DNA of 49,131 nucleotides, filler included, from Sphacelaria rigidula (taxonomy: Eukaryota), in NCBI GenBank assembly GCA_964200075.2. It is 2 parts of 2 records of this genome, joined end to end, with 100 filler letters (N's around TTAATTAATTAA, not from the genome) between each part and the next. Parts side by side here need not be neighbours in the genome. Positions count along the whole stretch, not along the records: positions 24,628 to 49,131 come from CAXNAA020000202.1; 1 more part is not named here. One strand, given 5' to 3'. Made by a program: the position numbers and the translations under genes. The notes beneath the pieces were generated by a model. That model saw nothing but the letters and a program-made list of their open reading frames with translations, searched no databases and was not told the origin of the DNA. Shown here piece by piece: positions 1 to 46,987 of the stretch. Within the stretch, counting starts at the first letter, position 1, and the number at the start of each line of letters is the position of its first letter.

Positions 1-41
1 AGAATTTTATTTATGTGAAACAAAAACAACCGGCGGCAGCG

Positions 42-44
<3 letters not shown>

Positions 45-76
<32 letters not shown>
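45..76. repeat. G homopolymer (32 nt), in DDX6 intron 2
   Basis: Uninterrupted G run read directly from the sequence. Confidence 0.9.
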
Positions 77-81
<5 letters not shown>

Positions 82-543
82 CCACCAAATCAGGTAGGGG
101 GCAAGTCTAAAACGAAGACGTTCCATCCAAAACCCAAAAAACACCACCCTCCCTGCACAGGCCCGCTCCCAGAAGATTCCGGCACAACACGTAGGCAGGC
201 GCCGGAAATGTCAAACCCGCGAATAATGAACAGCCGATAGAGAAATGCTCAGAAACGCTTGCTTGCAATGCCGCACGACCCAGGCGTCAACTTATAGTTA
301 CACGTTTTTGTACTTTGGAAATATAACGGGGGTTCCACCATAGATACGGTCCGTCACATTAGTATCAAGTAATTACCTTTGCTGTACGCAGTGCGAGGTC
401 CCATCATAGTGGGGGTCATGCCGGGCTGGCGACCCACCGCACTATTCCATCACCCACCGCACTCTACACCACCGCCAACGGGTACGGTAGGCCGTGATCC
501 GAAATGGTCTCGTGTTTACACCCTAGACAATAGATTCTATCGT

Positions 544-626
544 AAAAAAATGTAGCGCGTACAGTATGGAATCTGTTGTCTATTGCAATAGGCACAATAG
601 TCGATACTGTACGCAGTACAATTTTT
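544..626. repeat. Short imperfect palindrome (MITE-like)
   Basis: Arm AAAAAATGTAGCGCGTACAGTAT pairs with ATACTGTACGCAGTACAATTTTTT; centre CTATTGCAATAG. Confidence 0.65.
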
Positions 627-710
627 GGCTGTGTATTCCCTTGTCCAGGGTGTGCTCGTCTTGTCGGTGGTACTTGAAATTCACATGACCGTGAAAAATA
701 ACGCTCTGAC

Positions 711-894
711 CTGAATGTAGTTGCGCTTGACGTCCGTCTTTTCTATGCAGGGGATGATGAACGCAGCCGTCTTTCCGGTACCGTTCTTGGCCCTGGCTAG
801 AAGGTTGCGGCCCTGCAGCAAGATAGGGATGGCCTCTTCCTGGATCGGCGAAGGGCGCTCAAAACCCTTCTCGTATATGCCCATCAGAAGCTCC
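711..894 (-). CDS. DDX6: DEAD-box RNA helicase DDX6/Dhh1/Me31B, coding exon 2 (gene continues beyond window start)
   Basis: Encodes (R)[23 protein letters not shown] (Q motif) and [10 protein letters not shown] (DDX6-type Walker A). Acceptor TGCAG| and donor CAG|GTCAGA. Phase matches exon 1 (CG+G = Arg). Confidence 0.95.
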
Positions 895-24527: not shown

Positions 24528-24627
24528 NNNNNNNNNNNNNNNNNNNNNNNNNNNNNNNNNNNNNNNNNNNNTTAATTAATTAANNNNNNNNNNNNNNNNN
24601 NNNNNNNNNNNNNNNNNNNNNNNNNNN
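24528..24627. other. Assembly gap with artificial linker (N44-TTAATTAATTAA-N44)
   Basis: Symmetric N runs around a 12-mer with stops in all six frames; total length exactly 100. Confidence 0.97.
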
Positions 24628-24891
24628 GAGCCTCATCTCGAAGTTAAACCTCAATTCTCACAATTTGTTGTTAGTGGGTACTCTATTTCGACGTACAGCT
24701 GTGCAACCCACGCCACTATGGGGAGGGATCGGGGACGAGATCACATCAACGAACCCCACAAGGCTTATGGGTAAGTTACAGAGATTCAGTAGTTGGCGAA
24801 AATTGTAAAAGGTGATATAGTAAACTGCCTATAGTACACTTTGTCTCGGTGACGTCATGTTCTTTTTAGCAGCGCCGTTGCGGAACTGCAC

Positions 24892-25131: not shown

Positions 25132-28100
25132 CTTGTGGTTCACGTTAGGGAAACAATCGGGTTTCGAACGGGCCGAAGACAGAAGTTGTTGAAGGCCAAA
25201 CGTAACGCACACAAACGCCAAAGCAGGTAACGTACACAAACGCCAGAGCAGGTGCACGGCTTACCCGGGTAAAGCAGATAGAAACAAGTGCGATAAAGAA
25301 ATACGCGCCACTCTTTTATATCCCGTGTATCTCTCTGGTGTCCCCCAATATGTGAGAATCACACCTACAATGAAAGAGGCAGTCACACAATTCCACCGAT
25401 CCATCACCTGATGACACAAAGAGGTGTCGCTGTAGCGCCGCCAGCCGTCAACTTCGCTATCAGAGCACAAAGATCCCCGCCCATAGTTTCCGAGGTCGTC
25501 TACTGTAACGACCAAATCATCTGTACCATAAAAGTCGTTCAAGCCGGTATACATTAGTCCCGCTAAAGCTTGATTTGCTCCGGCCAGTGTCGTCCGAAAC
25601 GCTATCATTCTGTCCTCAATGCCGTCGCCAACAAGGAACAGATATCCCGCGGACCCGGTGCCCACAGAAATCGTCCCATTGCTGGCGTAGACTGTGACTT
25701 CGATGATACCTCCGTCCATAGCTTCCGGACCACCGCCAAAAGTAGGTGCTTTGCCGAGGGTAAGGTCAACGTCGCGTACAGAGAGGCCGGGTACAGAACT
25801 GCCCTGATCCTCTCGTGTGGTTAATACATCCACAGCGAGGACGATGTCCGATAGGCCGTCGTGCGTAAGCATGGATGAGTCGTATGTTGATGCGGAAGAT
25901 CCAAGCACCGGTGGGTCGTTTTCTGGTAGCACTACAAATGCAAGGATGGCGGTTGAAGTATCCCCATCCGAGTCAATCACATGCAGAGTGATTTCCTTGA
26001 TCCAGAAAGACACATGTTGGGCAACGGGTGGTGGGAAGTAGGTCAGATATCGAGTCCAGAAGGTTGGATGCGGAAAATCATGTCAACGCGCGAGTTTCCC
26101 CATGGAAAAGGCTGGAATCGTGCTGCTACCCTAATCCCGAGGAAACCACAACACAAGACACAGGAACATCTGGGTGCGTAAGATTGTTCATGGTGAATTC
26201 GTGCACTCGCAACAAAGAGCCAGCTCACCTCAAGGGTAACATGGTCCAGCTCAGATATGCCCAGTCCCGCCCAGCTGTTCCAGTTTAGGGACGATTGATA
26301 ATGCATTCCTTTCAGTGATTCTGCGACTGCCCACAATGGCCCAATGGCGGTCATTGATGAATAGAAATCTAATGGGATAAACTTGCCCTCAGCAGTTTCG
26401 TCCTCTCCTGAGACACCGGTGATGGATACCTCAGACCGCACGTTGCTTAGGAGCACCCCCCCCCATGCGACTGAAATGGTCAAGGTAACGGTATCATCGA
26501 TGGTTGATACTGGATTCTCGCCGATTGGGTCTTGAGCAAGTATCCATCGACTGTAGCTCTGTCGTGGGGTAGTACCACCGTCTGCAAGATTGTACGAAAT
26601 GTCTGCATCCAACAGGACGATGCTGGAGTTAGAGATCATGGTTGGTCGGGGGGTAATTTTGTCCGACCACCCGCAGCAATCTGCTCCAACGGTCCCAACG
26701 CGATCCTCTTCGGTGAAAAGAGGTATTTCGCTCGAGAGTGACGTCGGTATGACGAAGGTTGGAGGGTCGTTGACGGACGACACATCAAATGCCAAAAAAA
26801 TGCCGGAAGATAGCGAGCCGTTGACGCCCTCCAGCGATTTTCCAGAGTTCCCGCGGTCGTCCACTACCACCTGTAGCCAACGTATACACACCATTGAATG
26901 TTGCACCGTGACCAGTATGTAAAACATCCAACAAAATTTACGTCTCAATAAGACATCGGGGGTTCATGGGATCCACATTTTTTGCCTGCAGAACACCCTA
27001 CAAGTAGGCAGCACATTGACAAGAACGCTGCCACCAAGCGACTGTATTGCCTAGGAGATTCAAGCGGAGGTGTTACCACCGAAAAGTTTGATAAGTCTCA
27101 CCTCCACCACGTCGAGCCCACTCCAATCCTGCTTGGGTTCGTAGATAATCCCTTCAGACAAGGCTTCGTTGATATGATGAAGAGCACCCACAACTATCAA
27201 GAGTTGTTCGCTGGTGTCTAAATTTCCCATCTCCGCCACCAATCCTGCATGTCCACCCCCCAGCGAGATCTGGCCATATGTGGAGGAAATCGATAGCCTG
27301 ATCCTCGGGTTCAACGCTAGCAACTCCACACCGTTTCCTGCACCGTTGTTGTCAGCCACAATGAAAAAACCATCTGGACGACTCAGGATTCCTCCTTCGC
27401 TCGTAATATCCACGTCCGAAACCCTTACACCCGTTACAACGGCAACGATATCTTCTTTGGTCGGCACCAAAAACGCTGAGGTTGTGGAATCGGTGGCGCC
27501 TGATTCTGTGTCCAACACCAACGTCAAGTCGAAATCGCTGATTTCGAGTACGGGGGGATCGTTGATAGCGGCCACAGACAGCGCAATATCGTAACTCCGT
27601 GCGTCGCTTGTGGTATCGAGGCTATTGTGCCCCAGATCGGTGACGGCCACGTAGATTTTGTCCCAACCGTACCAGTCTCGGGGAGCGATGTATTCCATAG
27701 ACAGCAGGACTGCGTTGACTTGCCAGGATGTGCCTGATACCCGTACAGAGGGTTGCAAAGTACTGTTGGAGGAACGCTCACGGCCTTCCTCTGTCACTGA
27801 AATCCGACCGTGTTTTGCGGAAAGGTCCACCTGGCCAACAGGGGTCGCACAACAAAAATGTAAGTTGTTATCACAAAAGAGACTCGCCCATGACAACACG
27901 GGGTATCTAGGTATCGTTGCTTGCCAGGTAGGAAGCTTGACAACAAAAAACTATTGAGGTGGGTCTATATCAAACTGCGGCGCAGCATACAACCCCACTC
28001 CGAAAGTTTCACTTCAATTTTCCGGAATGGGTCGTTCCCGGTTCTCACCTGCACTATTGTCGCCCCGTGGTCGGGATCGTGGACACGTAGACCGCGGCCG

Positions 28101-31100
28101 GGTCCGCGGAGATCAATATGGCCGAACTGCGCCGGTGTCTCTCGAATACCTCCATCGTGGCAATCGTAGTCCGCCAGTCGGAACGGCGCATCTTCGTCCA
28201 CTCCTCGAATGATTTCCCCCGTGGATGAAAGGATTCCGCCGCACCACAACAGGTACGGCGGGTCGTTCACTGACTCCACGGCAGCAGACAGCACGGTCCA
28301 TCCTGTTTTCACTCCCCCGGCGCCCGTGAACCCACCGTCCGTAACCCGGAAGATAATATCGGCGTCACCACTCCAACCCGGTATCGAAGAATATGACAAA
28401 CTCGCTAGTGCGTTTGTTACCTTGTCTGGCGAACCATGTATGGTGAGGGTTTCGCCGATGGTGTAACCGGGGATACCGAAAGCTGCCCCTCCAAGATCGA
28501 CAAGCCGAAGCACTGCCCCACGCCCCCCTGGCCTGATTAATCGCGCAGACGCTCTCGCGCTTGCTCCCATGAGTCCTTTTGCGAAACTACCGGTTGCGGT
28601 CAAGTTTGCTGAAGTCTCCGAATCGCGCAGAAGAGCAATGGTCCACCTTCGCCCCCCTTCTGAACTGATTTTCTGTGCTCTAGTAGCAACTGCCACCCCA
28701 GTTCCAACATCAGGGGGAGAAAAGGTTTCAAGAGCATTGAGAGCAGTTGCAACTTCGGCGCCTGTGCTGTCGTGTGCCAGAGCAGTCGTGGAGAGACCAC
28801 CATACTGTAGGGAAAAAAAGCCCTCGACCGCGTTGTGGGCGGTAGCAACCGTGGCCGAGATCGCAGCACCACCGGACAGATGTGCACCGTGAACAGATAG
28901 CACTGGGAGGTCTTTGGGAGCGCCAGTAAATGTTATGTACCATTCCACAGTGTCTTCGTCACTGGATTCTACTCTCTTCACAAGCACGTCGGTATCCGAT
29001 CCTAACTTGGTCCAATTGTCGAGAAGCTTGAGACGGGCCTCGAGCGATTCACCTCGCTTTCCCCCGGAAACTCCTCCGAAGGACCACCAGGATCCGCCTT
29101 CGTCACTAATGGGGCCAACAGCTCGCGGGTAGATTGGTCTCGTCCAATCGTTGGTTCCACCGTAGTCAAGCCCCAGCTGGAAGTAGCCTTTTGCGCGGCT
29201 GGCGCCGGTCATGGTAACGACAATGACCATGTTTTCATGTGCTGCTGATGTGCTTACCTCCCACAGCTCTGGGATGCCACGTCCTGGAACAGTCTCAACT
29301 ACGCTCACTCCAGCTCCTCTACCGCCGAGTGTTGCTCCATCTGCTTCTATCAGAGGCATATCCCCGCCCGAGCCAAGCACGTCGAAAAGGGTTATAACCC
29401 ATTGTCGTCCACCCTGAGGGTCTGGCGAAGAGGGAATTGCGACGTCCACAGCATTTATCGAAGGCAGACTTTCCAGCGCCGCAGCCAAGTCGCGGGAGTC
29501 TGCGTTGTGAGGGATACGCTGGGTCGTATAACCGCCGACAGAAAGGGTAAAGCTACCAGAGAGAGAATTTCCAGCCACGACGGATGCTGTCTCGATTCCC
29601 ACACCATCACCGGTTAGCGATTCGCCAGAGGCCTGCATCACGGGTAGGGTGGTTGGCGCACCGAGGAACGTCACAAGCCACTTGCGACCGCCAGTGGAGG
29701 TCAGACCGCCATCCACTCGGCAAAATACGGTGATCCCCAGGACATTCAACGACGGAAGGTTCTCGAGGTTTGCTTGAATAGATTCACCGGCTTGATCACC
29801 AGTGTCGACCCCAAGATATCTATCGCCTTCGTTGGCAATCGCGTCGTGCGAGATGGGCCCAGTGCTTTCCACTTTGCACTCGTCGCACAGCTCCGAAAAA
29901 TCTAGGGTAAGGTTGAAGTTCCCCCCAACCGTCGCGTTACCATCCGCCGCGGCAAAGGTAGTGATGCTCTGCACTGGGTCAATCCTTGTCGCCGAAGTTG
30001 TCACTCGTTGCACCTCAAGCACAGAACGGTGGCTGACGCCCACAGTCATAGTTAAATATCCGTTCGTCGAATCCTCCACGTCTGCATCCGCTACGTTTAG
30101 CCCAGCTAGTTCACCAATCCTTTCTAGCACCCCTCCTTCCTTCAAGGTCATATTTACATCGTTCGTCAACGTGACTTCGGGGGGAAAGTTAACATGAGTT
30201 CCATATATCTCCACCTCTATCGAAGTCTTGCCGCCGTCGTCATCTTCGACTTGCACTCGCAGTGTGCCAACTGAAGCCGGAGCAGCGAGGAAGCCAGCTG
30301 AAGACGAAAACAGCGTGTTAATGCTGGAGATATTTCCACGGAAGGCCACCGCAGAGCTCGGTTCACCACGAGCAGATCCTATGGAAAATTCCACTGTATC
30401 TGCTACAGACCGAACAACGACGGTGTCATCCTCATTGAGCATTTCCATCCGCACGCTGAGCATCTCGCCTTCAGGAAGATCGGTATCCTCCACGCGCAGT
30501 CCGGCCAGGGGGATTCCTTCCAGATTAAGCAGTTCAACGGGTGGGGTGGTGACGGCCCAGCTGACAAGCGGGGCTTGGTTGACTGGCCTGACATTGACTA
30601 CGAACTCCCGGAGAATGGAGTAATTCTGAGTTTTGCCGCGCCTGGTCGTATTGACGACCACCGAGTGATTTCCTAGACCGGTGCTACCATTTGCGCTCAA
30701 GTAAGTCAAGGCGTCGAATGCCTCGTTGATTTCTCCCAGTGTTCCTCGGAAGGAGAGACTGGGTCTAGGGGTGCCGAACATCCCTTCAAGACCTGTGCCA
30801 GCAGAAATCGCGGCCATGGCTACAACTGCCGTGTCCGTTTCAGCGATAGGAGATAGCCCTAACGGAACGGGTGTGAGCCCAATACCCCCGGCGGTGACCA
30901 CAATGTGTACATGGAACGTAGGTGGTGTCGTACCAGCGAAAACGGCCGCATCGAAAACTGCATCTTCAAGTTGGGCCCCGCGCAGAGAAGCGGCTATGCC
31001 TTGGTCAGCGATGAACGAAGCGTTGGTAACGGTGAGATTGGGCTCAACATGAGGATCGGACACAACTACCACGCACTCCACCTCTCCAACAGCGCCTAGT

Positions 31101-34100: not shown

Positions 34101-37100
34101 TGGAGACCGACGCGTTTTCCACCCAGTCGTATGCGCGTCCGTGAACCGATAGTTCGAGCACTTCCATGCCGCAGTAGTCTGCTTCTGGTAGATAAGCCCA
34201 GCTTGTCATGGCAGAGGATACATCACTCAATGTCCCGCTGAGACTCATTGATCCGAGACCATGGTGAACGATGTCCATATCGCCTATATTCGAAGCTACC
34301 TTCATCACGCCATGGTCCGCCGTGACGGTGGCTTCTACCCACGTCGTATTAAAAGTACTACCGCCGTCGGGTATCAGCGCGACGCCTAGGCTATCTAGGC
34401 GTCCGTCTTCCTCCATGGCCAACGTATCGAGTGGAACATCCCATCCTATGGGCCCCTTAGCGACGGCGAATGGATCTTGACGATGTTGGACGACGACTGT
34501 AACGATGGATGAAACTACCTCCTCATCGCCGGATCCCCAGTTTCCCAGGTCAGAAACGGTAAAGTTTACGTCGTTGCGCCCACTCTGTTGTCCGAATGGT
34601 GCAAAAAACTGGAGGAGACCCAGGACAGCATTTGCGATGTCGATGGGGGCGCTGAACGCTAGACGCGGGTAACTTCCCTCCGCCGAGCCTTCATCAAAAC
34701 GCACGCCTGGGATCCTTCCGTGCACAGTTGCCGTGCTTAAAGCGAGAGAAAGAAGGTTTCCGGCATCACCAGCTCTGATATCAACAGAAACTAGTTCACT
34801 TCCGGCAGGTTCCCTAGCATCTGGGTCGTGTACGGTGATACCAGCCAAAGGCAACAAATCGCCAGCAGACGCCACAGGCAACACGTCACCTGTCAGATCA
34901 TTAGGAACATCAATCCTCGGTGGGTCATTGATGGGACCAATCACCACGATGACCGTCTCGATGGCTGTAACGGCATGCCACCCGCCCCCTTCACCACTTC
35001 TACCCTGTCTCGCCGCAATGGAGAGCTCATCTGCACCCCAAAAGTCGGCCTTCGGGATATATCGGAGCGAGCGCAACGCGCGGTTCACGTGATCGACTTC
35101 GCCAGTCACGACCACACCCGCCCCGGTATCCTTGTTTATCGACAGCTCATCTGAGTTACTAGATAATTTCATGTCGACAACGCCGTCGGAAGCATAGATC
35201 TCTACTTGAACGGTCGGGTTCGGTGAAAAGCCTGGAACCGAAATCTCGATAGAGTCCAACAGTAGGTCCGTGTCTTCATCCATGTGCGGATTGGGGGGCA
35301 ACACGGCCAACTGGTTCACGCGGGTGATCGTAGGCGGGCTGTTGGCTTCGATCTCCACCTTTACGACTCGTGAAACTGACAGCCCGCCTGCATCCACGAG
35401 GGATATAAGAATCTTGTCTACACCCGAGAAGTCGTTAGCTGTACCGCGGTACGTAAGATCCTCCAAAGCAGATGCTATGTCTTCGAGTCGGCCGTATGCG
35501 GCTATGCTGCTGTGACCTTCTCCCTTGCCCTGCATGGATTACGGATGATATTACAGCGATTCGAGTTATTCAAGTCGAGAATAAGGGCGCTCATTCGCTC
35601 ATTAGCGCGTAGTATGTTATCTATACATACTCAATCAGCGCATATCGCCCGTTCTCGGCGAAGGTCAGTCAAATAGCGCGCTACGTGCTCGGAATGTGGA
35701 CAGTTGGTGTCACCGTGCTGTTAGGGGATCACTCGCGCCTTTTACACCGGATATTGCTTGAACACTCCATATGATGTTCGACACCGAGCACTCCTTCTTG
35801 GATACCATCGACACAAGCCTATGCTTCAAGAAAGAGCACATTTTTCTGGTGTTTAAATGTAACGACGAACTTGTCTTGAGCATACCAATAATCCGTACCT
35901 TAGTAACGTCCACGAGGCGATGCAGCTGTTGATCTGGAATCGATACCACTCCACGAACCGCCTCCACGTTGAGGGCCATAATGCCTCCTACGTCGTCGTC
36001 CGACACGCGGATACCCTCCACGGCCATCGGTGACATGCCTACTGTCCGCATGGAGCGGGGCGCGGCAAGCTCCGGAGCCCTGTTGCTGCCATCAACTAAA
36101 ATGTACAGCGTGGAAGAGCCAGAACCGCCGCCGATCCCTGCTCCTGCCATTCTCACCTCTACGGTAACGCTATCAGCCCCACGATACCGCGTGGGCACGG
36201 AGTAAATGACTTGGGCCAAAGCATGATTGAGGTCCGACAACGTTCCGATCAGTTCGGTCACCGTTGGAGACAGGATATCGATATTTACATGTCGTCTGAT
36301 CCTCGACGATGCAGGCTTCACCATGCCTCTGGAGCAACTCAACCGAGCTACGTATTGCACTTCGTGATGGCCATCTTTCATCGATGCTGTCCATGCGACC
36401 GCATGATGGATCTCAATGGCTGGAAGGTACACCACGCCACCTTCAAATCCTCTCAGAAACTCACTCTCACCGTCTTTACGATATATACGAACCGTTGGTG
36501 GTGACTCCTGGGGCACGATAGTGACGCTCCACGAAGCGGCGACGTCAAGCGACTCTCCGGAGCCGACGTTTCCCAAGTCATCAACAACTATGCTGACCGT
36601 ATCCATCGGAGCCCGCCCCTTTGTCACCTCGGACACCCGAAGCACTCCACCGCTATTCCGAAGACCCGCGTCATCGGCAATCAAGACCGGGAGATCACCA
36701 GCGTGCGGGGGTGAGCCAGATGACAGAAACGTCACTTGCCAATATCGCCCGAGACTTGGCACACCTGGCGATTTGACTAGAAGCGATCCCGTGGACACCT
36801 GGACCGCCCCTACATCTGCTAGTGCACTGAGCGCTAGGGCTAGTTCCTCCCCAGATGCAGAGGCAGGTACGGCTTGGGTTGCCTCACCGCCGGGGATCAG
36901 GGCCAAAGTGAAGGTCCCGGTGAGACTAGATGACGACGAGCCTACCTCAATGATGACCACTGACATCGATGGCTCCAAAGACGAGCTAGAAACACCATAC
37001 ACATAGGGTGTCTCGCTGGCTCCAGTGCCACCCACAGTGAGATTTTGGGAGACTACGTCGAAAGCCGGCAGAGATTCAGGTACATCAATGAGAGTTACCG

Positions 37101-39183
37101 CCCAGGAAATGCACCCGTGCAGATCAGGATCACCTCTGGCAACCACGGCGGTCGCTGCACTGTGAGGCAATATTTCCGACGAAAATACGTCTGTGGACGA
37201 TGAGTTGCCTGGCGACGTAGCGTTGAACTCCTCCGCTAGAATTATGGACTGATTCCACGCCTGGTTGTAACAGTCCGTCAACATAGCGCGAATCCCGACT
37301 TCAACGGAGGCATTTCCGGAAGCGGGGGCATCTGCTGCCAGGGGCGGAGATTGCGCAACGCGTGAATATGAATCTGTGACGGTGTCGTTGAAGAGATCTG
37401 CATCTGGGAAAATCTCTTTGAGTGGCTCGAAAAATGCGTCACATTTCAGAGCCAAAGTAAAATTCCCTTCAATGTATCCCTCGACCGCAGATGTCGTGAT
37501 CGACTGGACCATTGGAGCTGTCGGTTGCGCCAGCTCTATCCTTTGAATCTCGGGCGCTGCACGCGACGATGCAGCACCGGCGGCAAAATCTCCGGGTGGG
37601 CGGTAGTACAGCTGTTTTACAGCTGATTGGATATTCGAAAGTTTCCCTTTGATGACCAACTGCCCGGAGGAGTGTGGTTCCGGTGTTCCAGAAAAGAACA
37701 TGAGGTCGTCAGGATCGCCTAGCGCCAAGGTTCCAAGCTGCGCCTCCACGCTCACCTGTATGACGATCTCCGGCCTTTCTATTAAATCCGGGTCTCCGAT
37801 GTCCGCACCCTCCAACAAAACCTCCTGCCCCTCGTAGACCAGAACATGCTGCTGAGGTATATTCAGTGTGGGGGGGTCGTTGATGGGTGCAACAAACACC
37901 TGCGACTTCGTCCTTGCCTTTGCACCCGACACCGTCTCGTCGATGCCAGGACTATTCTCGTCATGCCAGTACGCGTATACCTCATCCAGCCCGCCCAACC
38001 ACGCGTTCCAGTACGGGCGAGGATGATATGAAACCTCGGAAAGGGCACGGGAAACGTCCGCGCTTGAACCAATCAGGTGGAATCTACGTCGGCGGGAGGC
38101 CACATGAAGGTTCGGCGGCGCTAGCGCACCCGCGGAACATCTTGCGCATCCTCCCCAGTTTTGGCTGTCCTGGAAGACGGGCGAAGTTGAGCACCAGCCC
38201 ATGCTCGAACCTCCCACACCTGCACATTCAAAGTGCGTCGTACCCCCGTCTTGATCGACAGTGAAGGGAAACTCGCACGACGTTTCTGTGACAGCCGGTC
38301 CGGTGCTCCCGTCCGCACACCACGGAGCTGGACCGCGGACATGCACATCTACCAGTTTCACGGAGTGAACTCCGTTGTCGTTAAGCGCCACCGCCCATTC
38401 TCGCCCGTAGCCTACCCTTAAGTTTGGAGCGACTGACACAGAAGCTTCCGCTCCGCCGCGTAAAGCCACTAATGCATTCTGTACCTCCTCGGCTGAAGAA
38501 TCGACTCGAAGAGGAACGGTGGTGCGAATGACATCTGCCCCCTCATTTTTGGTCACACCGTCTGCTCTCACGAGTTGCAGGCGAAACGTTCCGCTAGCCG
38601 GCGACGACCCTCGCACTAAGCGTCGAATTTCCACTGTGGAGTGCTCAAGCAAGCAGTCTAACGACAACGAAACGTTGGTTGCGCTGGTTGTTTCGCAGGA
38701 ACTTGTCATCATTTCCTGGGGACCGGCTGAGGCGAAAGTGATTCGCCAACTCTTCTCTGCATCGTCGGCATTGCTTACTGTAACACCATCGCGAATGCTG
38801 GGTAGTTGAGCTAGAGCAGCGACCAAGTCTGTGGAACTGGCGTTGAAGGATAAAGGGAGGCTCCTGTCGCCGCCGAAGCTGACATCAAACATGCCGGCCG
38901 TCATGCCATTGCCTGACCCAGATACAGTCAGCTGTTGCACTTCGTGCACGAACGGCGCCGATCCCTTAATTGCTTCGACGACCTCCACGTGCATCAACGT
39001 GGTATTCGAATTGCTAACTTCCAGAAGAGGCATGTCTCCTGCGTTAACCACAGCGTCGTCGAACGCCACCGTAATCTGCGACCACCAATACGGCGGGGTT
39101 CCGAAATGAACGCGATCAGTTTAACTTGGCTGGGATGAACGGGGACAGTGTTTGAGCGAGGGCGAAGCCCAATGGGAACATGG

Positions 39184-39218
<35 letters not shown>

Positions 39219-42200: not shown

Positions 42201-45200
42201 CGCATTCTCGGCCTTCAGAAGAGGCACGTCGCCCCCACGAGATAAAAACGTCACGAGGTGGCGACTCGCCACTGCCGAATTTTCAATAGAGGCGGCAGGG
42301 ACGCGAGTGACGCTTAGGTCACCTGCAGACGGTAGCGTTTCTAAAGCGGCAGCCAAATCCGCAGCGCTCCGAGACGGATCCAGAAGCGACGCTGCGGCCA
42401 TTGGCCAAGAGGTACCGTTTAAGTACGTATGGATGATGGTGTCATTTTCGGGGCCCTCGAGAGATATATAGACTTCAGCAATAGATAGATTATCTTGTGC
42501 CATCACGTCGATCTGCTGGACCTCGTACCGCCAAGGAACTGAGGTACGTATCACCTGTGTGTTGGGTTGAAAGAATGTAGTACCAGTATTTCGCTTTTCA
42601 AAAGACATTGCACAGAAAGGATCTGCAAACAATCAACAAGTGGGCCCTACAAGGTGCTGACGAGGAACACCTCGTTCCCGCAAGATGCGCAGAAAACTAA
42701 ACACTTCTCATGACAGATCGCAGAGACATAAACCCACATTTGTATGCTCGCAGCGACAAGTTGAAACAATACACAGAATCAATCGTTCCAATTTACCTGA
42801 ACTTCTGGTAGTGTTGTTTCTGCACCCCCCGTTGTTTCGATCACGGTAACGGCCGGGCCCCATTCCTCGCTTGCCGCGGCGACGGCTACTTTTTCACCAG
42901 TGGCTCCAAGTGATATATATCCTTCCCTTGCAGATAGAGCTACTGTGACTATATCGGTATCATTAGTGACCGAGAAGATATCATCAAGGCCAGGGAGCGC
43001 CACCGCCACCCCCTCCGTGGTATTCACCAAGGGAAGTATTTTCTCCGACGCAAACTGATCACCGAGAGTAGCCGGAGTGGTCGCTCCGGCCTTCACCAAA
43101 ATCGAGGAATTGACGCGCTCCTCTCCTCCCGCCCCGGAAAAACCAAGATCATTAACCTGCACGAGTATCTCGTCAATGGTATCACCTGTCGTGATCGTCC
43201 CACCTTTGGTAGCATTGGCCCTCGTAAAGAACAGAGTCGCCAACGCGTTGTTGACGTACTCAGGCTGACCGCGCAATCGTACGACCGTTTCATCATCGGC
43301 GTCATCCCTCAAGCCATTCTGTAAAGCGACTGTTGCATCCACCGCAAGGCTACCTCCCGCACTGGTCCAGATTGTGATTTCTAGGCGGCCACGCCCCCCC
43401 GGTGCACTCAAGACGTCTGGATCGGTCACTCTGACGCCTGGCACGGGCGATTCTTCGAAGCCTCTAGTGACGATGATTCGCGGCGCATCAACAGCCGGCG
43501 GGTCGTTCATCCAGCCAACGGAAATCTTGACGGAAGCTCTGGACCATGCTGCGTTCGATCTTACACGCAAACCATCATCATATACCGCCTGTCCCCCCAT
43601 GCCACCGGGGGTTGCGACAATGTCGACGCGAGCGAGGGCAACGGATCCTTGTTCATGGGGAGAGCGAACAGGAGTATCGTCAAACTCTGATCCGTTACGA
43701 TTCCAGTATCCAAAGGAATTCAGCCGTGGTTCAAACGTGAGCCCAGACATTGCGTGCGTAAGGTCCGCCGGTGAGCCTGTCATGTGCAACCGCTTGGCGC
43801 TCGTCTCCGTACCATGCACGAGTGCAATATTTTCCATGTTGCTCTCAACAAGGGTCAGATTACCAGACACTGCCAATAGCACTAAATCAACGGCGGCTAG
43901 TTCACCGACCGAGCCGCCTGTAACGATGACATTGGGAAGAACCAAGGGCTCATCTTCTTGAGTAAGCAAGACACTACCCTGAGACGGCGAACGATCAAAT
44001 TCAACAGCAAGAGGTGGATCATACGGCAGTACGCCCACTTCAAGAATCCCCGTCATCGTTCCTACTCCGCCTGCCCCGCAGTTGCCGCCATCGGCGACAG
44101 TCACGCGCACGGTATCGGTTCCTGAAAAATCAGCTGGAGCGCTGTACTCAATGTGTCCTTCGTCAAGTGCTCTCTGAAGCAACTTGAGTGATCCCTGGAG
44201 AAACAAGTCTTCTCCCGGACCTGCTGAAGCACCGCCGATCACGCGGACTCCAACAGCGTTCTTTTCGTGGATGGTGACAACCCCAGCACTTGGGGTAAGT
44301 TCCAAGCTCAGTGCTTTTCTGCCCTCTATCCCACGGATATTTGTGCAGAGATCGGAGCTGTCGTCGACGTCCAAGTCGTCGAGTACAATACTCGATATTT
44401 TGTCACCTTCACCGCCGGCCGTAACCTCGAGCTTTGGCAAATGCCCGTCAAGCCCAAGTGAACTGATCACCGGCGGATCGTTGATGGGACGGACGTAGAG
44501 ATAAACAATGCCTTCGTCCACCAGACCGCCTTCATCGACAGCTTGAACCAAAACGGCTACCTGACCCGCAAAGTTGGTGGGCGGCCAGTACGTTAGAATC
44601 TGCGCAGCCATATCTACGTCCTCGACTAAGCCTCGGAGAGCCAACGCTTGTTGCTCGCCACCTGATAAGACGTGAGACATTTCGATGTTCTCGGCCCCGC
44701 CTCTCTCCAAATCTGCCGTCGACATATTCACCTCTCCGTAGTCAGGCCGCAACTCCAGAGTCACTATTGCCCCAGGATCTGCATCGGAAACGGAGACAAA
44801 ATCTATCGCCAATGAAGTGTCTTCGTCGAAGTAGTGCGCCGGTGACGGATAGCTCAGCTTGGGCTTGTCATTGACTGGATTGACAATCACGGCAAATTGT
44901 TTTTCCGCGTCTAGCATGACATCGTCTCTCCCTTCACTGAGATCACTAACCCACACGTGAAGCTGATCGGTCCCACTCCAGTCCACCGGTGGGCGGTACT
45001 CTAACCGTTGTAGTGAACGATTGAGCTCCCGAAGGCCCCCACGCGCCCAGAACTCGCCTGAACCATCCGATTGATCTCCGCTGAGCAGGTAAAGCCCACC
45101 GGCAGAAGCTAAAGGAAGCTGAAGGTTTCCTATTCCAGCAATGACTTTGACTTCCCACATAGCATCTATCTTGCCCGACTCATCGGGATCAGCCAACTGA

Positions 45201-46023: not shown

Positions 46024-46987
46024 TTCAGGAAGCGAACAGTTTACCCATTGAACCAGTGAGCGCTCACTGGTTCAGTGGATAGGCTGTTCGCTTCCTGAAC
46101 AAAAGATATGCTGTGTGGTCCATCCCGGCATGACACATCAATGATATCCGTAGCTTCCGCCCGTCGCAAACCTCACCGCTCACATGTCAAACTCGTTTCT
46201 TCCACAAACGGTCATGCCGGGACTCGGACTCCCGACCTCTTGTTCAGGAAGCGAACAGATTACCCATTGAATCAGTGATGGGACCACTCACTATATATTT
46301 TGTTCAGGAAGCGAACAGTTTACCCATTGAATCAGTAAGCGCTCACTGGTTCAATGCGTGAACTGTTCGCTCCCTGAACGCATGCCGTCCAGAAGGTGGT
46401 GCAAAAGATTTTCGAGTACCTGCATTCAACGGCGGACCTGGGGCTCACACATCGTGTAGGACCTGATGTAGACATGAGAACAACGGTGTATGTGGATGCG
46501 GATTACGGGAAGGATGGCGAGGCGGGGAGATCGGTATCGGATGGTGCAGTTCTGCGTCCTAGGACACCATGCTACTGGTGATCTACCACACAAAACTGCA
46601 CCATCCGATACCGATCTCCTCGCCTTGTCATCCTTGCCGTAGTCTGCATCCACATACACCGCTGTTCTCATGTCTATATCAGGTCCTGCAGGATGTGTGA
46701 GCCCTGGATCCGCCGTTGAATGCAGGTACTCGAAAATCTTTTGCGCTAACTTCCAGTGGGTTTCCTTCGGGTCGTGCGAATGTCGCGCCACGGCCCACAC
46801 TGCATTGGAAATGTCATGCTTGGTTTGATTGGCAATCCACATCAATCACCCCACCATTTCGCGGAACGGCACATCCTTGATACCTTTGTCACCATTCATG
46901 AGCCACACAGCATATGTTTTGTTCAGGAAGCGAAAAGTTTATCCATTGAACAAGTGAGCACTCACTGGTTCAATGGATATACTGTTC
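46024..46987. repeat. Four copies of a ~78-bp palindrome (46024-46099, half copy 46242-46277, 46302-46379, 46921-46987)
   Basis: TTCAGGAAGCGAACAGTTTACCCATTGAACCAGTGAGC followed directly by its imperfect reverse complement. Confidence 0.85.
46396..46845 (-). mobile_element. Ty1/Copia RT-RNase H fragment with inverted duplication
   Basis: WIANQTKHDISNAV..VARHSHDPKETHW...YVDADY...RRSVS.GAV.CGRSPVAW..RTQ matches the Copia RT/RNase H junction; 46401-46554 is an inverted copy of 46591-46744. Confidence 0.88.

Follow-up and report, generated by a model that had tools for sequence, protein, structure and literature searches.

A giant gene on the minus strand

The stretch analyzed here, called the window below, is 49,131 nucleotides of DNA from Sphacelaria rigidula (assembly GCA_964200075.2), and its positions 24,628 to 49,131 come from CAXNAA020000202.1. 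The window is eukaryotic-looking, and its minus strand carries long open frames from about 45577 down to 24832 with short closed stretches between them. These frames are exons of one giant multi-exon gene, and the subject of this analysis is a cadherin-like repeat of the encoded protein that is interrupted by four modules of another type, the EVQ modules, at 28517-30010. The giant protein has its nearest named relatives in Triparma and in the brown alga Choristocarpus, and the host is read as a photosynthetic stramenopile. A partial protein of 5148 residues from Choristocarpus tenellus (P0007) is collinear with the window from 39075 down to 24886 at 37-51% identity. The window below 24886 gives no match to the remaining ~1340 residues of P0007; the 3′ third of the gene lies either outside the window or beyond the N runs at 24528-24571 and 24584-24627.

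The insert is located within a single stop-free minus-strand frame of 1263 codons, 31756-27968, whose translation is P0001, and corresponds to residues 583-1080 of that translation. Since this one frame holds both flanks and the insert, splicing cannot have made the arrangement. All of the strings quoted in the initial annotation were found on the minus strand in this frame, whose landmarks are HVNFPP at residue 521, SHRSVL-EVQ at 575, LTIHGSPDK at 1104, RVTDGG at 1137, and the closing NDPP at 1164. A sequencing run guessed to be RNA contributes two short contigs here, 28109-28312 and 28336-28516, neither of which bridges a junction of the insert.

Anatomy of the split repeat

Two profiles were used to delimit the repeats and modules. 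The repeat profile, of about 139 positions for a repeat of about 135 residues, was first made from 15 aligned uninterrupted repeats of the window and then enlarged to 247 full-length repeats, taken from relatives as well as from the window, and the EVQ profile was made from 320 modules from the window and relatives; phmmer with one single repeat was too weak for defining the repeats. The region is organized as follows, all on the minus strand, with independent E-values given as iE.

30179..30568 (-), uninterrupted Big_9/cadherin-like repeat adjoining the split repeat upstream in the protein; P0001 397-526 (profile match 402-526), repeat-profile positions 8-139, iE 8.1e-14
30017..30190 (-), split repeat, N part; P0001 523-580, strands A, B, and C, ending in ...SHRSVL, repeat-profile positions 1-58
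29990..30016 (-), EVQ strand; P0001 581-589, residues 192-199 of structural model 1, probably the first strand of short module 2, judging from aligned ranges
29576..29980 (-), EVQ module 1, long; P0001 593-727 (profile match 593-729), iE 3.1e-21, seven strands and helices in the model
29282..29575 (-), EVQ module 2, short; P0001 728-825 (profile match 726-825), iE 6.5e-29
29246..29269 (-), ELWEV strand; P0001 830-837, model residues 441-448, probably the first strand of short module 4
28841..29236 (-), EVQ module 3, long; P0001 841-972, EVQ-profile iE 1.6e-14
28526..28840 (-), EVQ module 4, short; P0001 973-1077 (profile match 969-1077), EVQ-profile iE 9e-17
28256..28525 (-), split repeat, C part; P0001 1078-1167, remaining strands, helix GSPDKVTNALASL, and closing NDPP, repeat-profile positions 73-139

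With the 247-repeat profile, the N flank (P0001 523-585) matches positions 1-58 with iE 0.0032 and 12.1 bits, and the C flank (P0001 1100-1167) matches positions 73-139 with iE 5.1e-12 and 40.6 bits. The two halves are thus complementary in the profile, and the EVQ profile finds four modules between them, as had been proposed for this locus: four EVQ repeats within one cadherin-like repeat.

The initial annotation also suggested deleting the insert in silico. The rejoined flanks align full-length, over repeat-profile positions 1-139, with 66.9-72.8 bits, against 18.3 bits for the N flank and 47.5 bits for the C flank alone, so that this expectation held. In a shuffle control set against the rejoined score of 66.9 bits, the highest score was 23.9 bits with the C flank shuffled and 52.9 bits with the N flank shuffled (n = 200 each). 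Twelve intact repeats of the window score 46.4-99.2 bits; because the rejoined score falls within this range and above the shuffles, the rejoined repeat is an ordinary member of the family.

Predicted structure of the split repeat

Model 1 is an AlphaFold2 prediction of P0001 residues 390-1175, covering the intact repeat and the split repeat with its insert, from an alignment of 10 sequences, nine of them collinear relatives. Its predicted local distance difference test (pLDDT) is 81.7 and its predicted template modeling score (pTM) 0.66, and the intact upstream repeat (model residues 8-137) serves as an internal control. According to DSSP, the N part has strands at 138-141, 147-150, 164-167, and 179-188, and the C part has strands at 693-696 and 714-719, a helix at 721-729, and strands at 731-734, 741-750, and 762-772. 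In its order of strands and helix the split repeat mirrors its intact neighbor, with the insert placed between the third strand and the next.

Model 1 was searched against about 48,000 solved chains with the aligned ranges reported. Among the best 50 matches listed for model 1, 27 are single beta-sandwich domains running from residue 131-138 to residue 770-783; the others fall on the intact repeat (16, at about 3..132), on the EVQ modules (3), or are multi-domain (4). Sandwich chains of 97-160 residues align 93-125 model residues across both flanks, over the range ~133..773, with a root-mean-square deviation (rmsd) of 2.5-3.6 Å. For example, the 97-residue PKD domain 4xed_A aligns 93 residues (rmsd 2.5, Z 8.5) and the 123-residue CLIPPER domain 9ifr_A aligns 114 of its 123 residues (rmsd 3.1). 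The RTX-adhesin split domain 9cse_A aligns 116 residues over 132..770 (Z 7.3), and the protocadherin extracellular cadherin (EC) domain 6vg4_A aligns 100 residues over 134..774 (Z 7.0, rmsd 2.8). With about 66 residues in the N flank and about 90 in the C flank, neither is long enough alone for the 93-125 residues aligned to compact domains, so that both flanks are predicted to be packed together. The proposal that the two flanks make one sandwich from which the array projects sideways therefore stands as a prediction, in agreement with both the rejoined alignment and the matches spanning the flanks. A Foldseek search with the whole model returned only generic multi-immunoglobulin (multi-Ig) rows and phage tail proteins.

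As a side observation, the top structural match of the rod repeat among those listed, above all adhesin and cadherin domains, is the beta-sandwich domain of human B4GALNT1 (residues ~141-265), with Z 10.1-10.3 and rmsd 2.4-2.6 on the intact repeat (model 7-132), and Z 10.8-11.6 and rmsd 6.7-6.8 on the split repeat (model 135-783).

Two more split repeats in the same gene

There are two further cases in this gene. The second split repeat lies in exon 39120-35713 (P0002), and the third, which is the first in the protein, begins at the end of exon 45577-42782. Their parts are listed below together with a fibronectin type II (fn2) domain carried by the first insert.

42863..43087 (-), third split repeat, N part; repeat-profile positions 13-72, weak alone at 11.9 bits
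38146..38277 (-), fn2 domain; P0002 residues 282-325, just ahead of the C part of the same split repeat
37870..38100 (-), third split repeat, C part; P0002 341-417, repeat-profile positions 71-139, iE 1e-08
37582..37881 (-), second split repeat, N part, cut later in the fold; P0002 414-513, repeat-profile positions 1-102, iE 1.3e-18
36607..37581 (-), second split repeat, insert; P0002 514-838, EIQ strand with a long and a short EVQ module
36481..36606 (-), second split repeat, C part; P0002 839-880 (match 839-875), repeat-profile positions 104-139, iE 0.02 alone

The EVQ profile matches the second insert at P0002 537-709 (1.5e-08) and 724-835 (1.9e-23), and its flanks when rejoined score 95.8 bits over profile positions 1-139. 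The first array in the protein is spread over more of the gene: an EVQ motif after the N part is followed by several exons with EVQ modules, the fn2 domain (Pfam PF00040, 26.3 bits against a cut-off of 22.2, E 7.2e-06), and the C part. The rejoined flanks of this repeat score 55.1 bits over positions 13-139. To our knowledge, the fn2 domain is unusual outside animals. The three cut points thus fall after about 58, 70, and 102 of the 139 profile positions, and the complementary parts around all three arrays indicate that all three EVQ arrays of the gene are nested, at three different cut points. A predicted structure of the second split repeat region (model 2) has pLDDT 72.5 and pTM 0.46, and in 3 of its 50 listed matches 98-124 residues are aligned across 5..462 (rmsd 3.0-3.5).

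Conservation in relatives

A search of 1.84 billion representative proteins gave 966 relatives at E ≤ 0.001, including proteins of up to 7982 residues that are single open reading frames (ORFs) on metagenome contigs. Seven non-redundant proteins (P0005, P0007, P0031, P0156, P0010, P0009, and P0072) are collinear from query residue 93 or earlier to at least residue 781, that is, from the intact repeat across the insert and through the closing NDPP. The layout is conserved in collinear order in relatives down to about 30% identity, including the Choristocarpus protein and a protein of 5534 residues from Triparma laevis.

Among 36 relatives with both domain types, three stations recur. At one, EVQ modules are followed by repeat positions ~71-139; at another, positions 1-~110 are followed by two EVQ modules and positions ~103-139; and at the third, positions 1-~60 are followed by four EVQ modules and positions ~51-139. 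When four near-identical cluster mates are left out, 29 EVQ arrays have repeat matches on either side, and none of the 29 lies between two complete repeats. A further insertion point is seen in P0016 and P0033, where repeat positions 1-35/39 are followed by two EVQ modules and positions 13/28-139; the repeat fold tolerates buds at four or more places. Separately, most long relatives have a conserved gap of about 590-780 residues near the C-terminus, before the last two repeats, which is covered by neither profile.

Hydrophobic, signal-like N-termini are present in P0010, P0016, and P0039, relatives with complete N-termini. Hydrophobic stretches are absent from seven of nine relatives checked, and P0015 and P0039 have one weak internal stretch each. 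The protein is probably secreted, as these termini suggest.

Possible pairwise nesting within the insert

The EVQ modules of the insert alternate between long and short. In model 1, DSSP assigns an extra strand ahead of each long module (EVQ at 192-199 and ELWEV at 441-448), and the short modules are without a first strand. Solved phage domains follow the same pattern: four domains of about 90 residues, including 8giu_1, 9d94_Jd, and 8kee_C, align from model residue 190 to 433-435, and these three align 83-86 residues at rmsd 2.0-3.0. Likewise, residues 306-397 of the Bxb1 capsid chain 9d9x_Ha align 92 residues (rmsd 2.6) over model 439..688, a range that begins at the second extra strand and closes with module 4. 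Module 3 is matched by itself, with residues 307-396 of 9d9w_Aa on model 453..584 (Z 10.1-10.2, rmsd 2.5, 90 aligned), and model 2 shows equivalent ranges for phage domains, 113..424 and 114..425. In these models, the extra strand seems to be the first strand of the short module, with the long module inserted after it, so that each long-short pair closes on itself. Array sizes in the relatives are mostly two, four, or six modules, and self-closing pairs would explain how such arrays fit into a loop.

Identity of the repeat and of the EVQ module

The label “cadherin-like” may serve as a name for the fold and does not stand for membership in the Pfam Cadherin family. The sister exons P0003 and P0004 match Big_9 (PF17963) with 30.7 and 30.1 bits against a cut-off of 23.6, and the split repeat is tied to these Big_9 sister repeats through our own repeat profile; the exon of the split repeat itself, P0001, has no Pfam match at E ≤ 1. 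Cadherin (PF00028) gives no match at E ≤ 1 in four large exons, nor at E ≤ 0.001 in four relatives. Relatives match Cadherin_4 and Cadherin_5, and the Cadherin_5 match in the window is below its cut-off. With tandem-95 (NCBIfam NF012211), P0004 scores 59.7 bits (E 2.1e-16) and P0001 31.2 bits, below the curated cut-off of 90, so that the protein is related to this family and is not a member. Protocadherin EC domains align with the split repeat at Z 6.4-7.0 and rmsd 2.8-3.2 over about 100 residues (range 133..774), such Z values being common for any sandwich. The repeat consensus has acidic E-E-D and D-x-D motifs and an N-D-x-P junction, at places that we take to be comparable to the calcium sites of cadherins (an acidic residue in strand A, D-x-D, and D-x-N-D-x-P), and its linkers may be stiffened by calcium.

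The EVQ module is covered by no family in Pfam or NCBIfam, and in a protein atlas it occurs only in unnamed eukaryotic clusters of diatoms and green algae. Nevertheless, phmmer relates it to gp23 of mycobacteriophage Bxb1, the “tail tip cage” (9d93), with E 3.4e-12 and three tandem repeats; the alignment is anchored on the motif G-x-F-x-L ... NAS ... AL, and its best match is the stretch of module 2 (29282..29575). The structural match to gp23 (9d93) has Z 11.4-11.7. Single EVQ modules align with domains in phage Patience and in the capsid, portal, and tail maps of Bxb1, with 22-29% identity (Z 10-11.7, rmsd 2.0-2.6). The solved matches include 9d9w, 9d9x, and 9d94 from the Bxb1 capsid/portal maps and 8giu from phage Patience. 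Furthermore, PHROG tail families match the module (4e-06 and 1.3e-04), and predicted phage tail proteins top the matches in the viral structure library. Being similar to the gp23-type virion module in both sequence and fold, the EVQ module is homologous to modules that recur on virion proteins of mycobacteriophages. The phage domain is not named in the papers on Bxb1 and related phages that were looked at. In the phages these modules decorate parts of the virion, whereas here they would be buds on a eukaryotic matrix protein, and in some relatives they form near-pure arrays, such as the 46 modules of P0006.

A small likeness between the two domain types was seen. The repeat profile gives a sub-threshold hit (-0.5 bits) at P0001 962-1016, on the strand-helix part of EVQ module 4, and both the repeat and the EVQ module have a strand followed by a ...A-L-x-x-L helix; this likeness is probably due to convergence or chance.

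Comparison with known split domains

The initial annotation knew of no description of such an architecture. A precedent does exist: in bacterial RTX adhesins, namely AhLap of Aeromonas hydrophila (PDB 9CSE), FrhA of Vibrio cholerae, and MpIBP of Marinomonas, ligand-binding domains bud from Ig-like split domains, with solved examples (PMC12077191, PMC10865825). The common plan is that a sandwich of a giant rod is interrupted after an early strand, the insert buds off the axis, and the sandwich is then completed. The features of an RTX-style split extender, i.e., complementary halves, a full-length rejoined alignment, and structural matches spanning both halves, are found here, the last of them in a predicted model. 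There are also clear differences. The host is a eukaryote and the gene has introns and probably a signal peptide, whereas RTX adhesins belong to Gram-negative bacteria; the bud consists of 2, 4, or more modules in an array, seemingly nested in pairs, instead of a single ligand-binding domain; and the type of the rod repeat and its cut points (~58, ~70, and ~102 of 139) differ from those of the RTX split domains. No RTX-type Pfam match was found in the exons of the window or in four relatives, and Pfam showed no type I secretion signal in these exons either, the C-terminal third of the gene being outside the window. In the limited literature collection searched, no paper dealt with this protein family or with domain nesting in proteins of stramenopiles. 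The principle of the layout is thus known from bacterial adhesins and apparently not described for algae.

Three-level nesting is also known from animals. In the integrin beta subunit, with its PSI, hybrid, and beta-I domains, one domain is inserted into an Ig-like sandwich, and this sandwich in turn sits within another domain; the protein is extracellular and serves adhesion. Its domains are unrelated to those of the giant protein here, and it has a single inserted domain, not arrays, in an animal receptor, not a secreted giant.

Alternative explanations

The flanks might be independent small domains or linkers that resemble halves of a repeat, with the EVQ modules standing in line with the rod. 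The weak match of the N flank alone (12-18 bits) and the long linear arrays that EVQ modules form in other proteins such as P0006 would fit this explanation. However, the halves occupy complementary and non-overlapping parts of the profile (1-58 and 73-139) and when rejoined score like intact repeats, 27 of the 50 listed structural matches put both flanks in one compact domain at rmsd 2.5-4 Å, no array among the 29 lies between complete repeats, and three cut points in one gene leave exactly complementary parts each time; we regard it as quite improbable. Or the N part may be completed by a C part from elsewhere, in a different split repeat or a different molecule, which would turn the split repeats into joints for polymerization or cross-linking. 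Strand complementation between subunits is common in pili. The gene offers three N and three C parts, and the cut points at ~68/71 and ~58/73 are close enough to cross-pair in principle, whereas the parts left by the cut at ~102/104 match only each other. In the AlphaFold2 model the sandwich is closed in cis, and with good confidence, which speaks against pairing in trans, although a monomer model cannot exclude it. Pairing in trans appears unlikely, with slightly more room left for it than for independent flanks. Least probable by far, and hardly to be expected, is that the insert is outside the mature protein as an in-frame intron, a mobile insertion, or an assembly artefact. It is true that no RNA run on record covers the junctions. 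On the other hand, about 1.5 kb are open in frame inside an open exon of 3.8 kb, a DNA contig from another run spans the whole stretch without differences, and relatives from other lineages, the single-ORF metagenome proteins among them, carry the insert in the same position, conserved as protein.

Several observations weigh against a single nested sandwich with paired modules. The strict test for complementary flanks was passed by 12 of the 29 arrays, the other 17 having one flank undetected or overlapping, and the N flank of the present repeat alone matches weakly under either profile (iE 0.26 with 15 sequences and 0.0032 with 247 repeats). Model 2 is of moderate confidence, with its split sandwich spanned by just 3 of the 50 matches listed, and the alignments used for folding are shallow (10 sequences for model 1 and 7 for model 2). 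Both the single sandwich and the pair nesting are read from aligned end residues, lengths, and rmsd, not from a contact map. A few arrays have three detected modules, so that even counts are not universal. With these points taken into account, the best explanation of the whole is still that the split repeat closes one sandwich and that the EVQ array is a lateral bud on the rod, which we consider to be probably the case.

Other features of the window

Apart from the exons treated above, ten other ORFs of the window (six below 24886 and four at or above 24832, two of the latter being exons of the gene) gave no Pfam match. One ORF upstream of the gene, 46426-46845 (-), has a by-eye likeness to the tail of a Ty1/copia-type polyprotein; Pfam gives no match for this ORF at E ≤ 0.01. 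A perfect (TGT)11 microsatellite lies between two exons at 39184-39217, and at 25202-25253 there are 2.1 copies of a 25-base unit.

A proposed rod with lateral buds

On this explanation, the gene would encode a giant secreted protein, a chain of some 30-50 sandwiches of the Big_9/cadherin-like type of about 135 residues each, possibly a rod stiffened by calcium. One repeat would be split after its third strand, where the chain exits the sandwich, builds four EVQ modules of about 500 residues in total, and then returns to complete the same sandwich, leaving the modules as a lateral bud rather than in line with the rod. Within the bud, an EVQ-type strand would open a short module, a complete long module would be built next, and the short module would then be finished, giving three levels of nesting. 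The rod may serve as a spacer, and buds at three stations would display binding surfaces sideways. Probably, the ligands of these surfaces in the extracellular matrix are glycans or wall polymers, or the surfaces serve self-association there, although such an adhesive function is a guess.

A broader interpretation, to which we give somewhat less than an even chance, is that this is a conserved family of giant stramenopile matrix proteins built by recursive nesting: the sandwich would hold short EVQ modules, each of which holds a long module, and pairs of this phage type would be set sideways at three fixed stations, as a eukaryotic counterpart of the bacterial split-domain adhesins.

Little is known about the proteins of the extracellular matrix and of adhesion in brown algae and their relatives, and the present gene family is large, conserved, and almost unannotated. 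With modules that bud from split repeats, the molecule has a plan that can be tested, a spacer rod with three lateral binding stations, and the split-domain rule by which ligand-binding parts are located in bacterial adhesins is extended to eukaryotes. In addition, a eukaryotic module that has no name is tied to phage virion domains of solved structure. If the pairwise nesting is true, it explains how a tandem array can enter a loop at all, and the EVQ pair would be a general device for inserting tandem modules into a loop. Should the recursive nesting hold for the family as a whole, its building blocks would be shared with bacteria and their phages.

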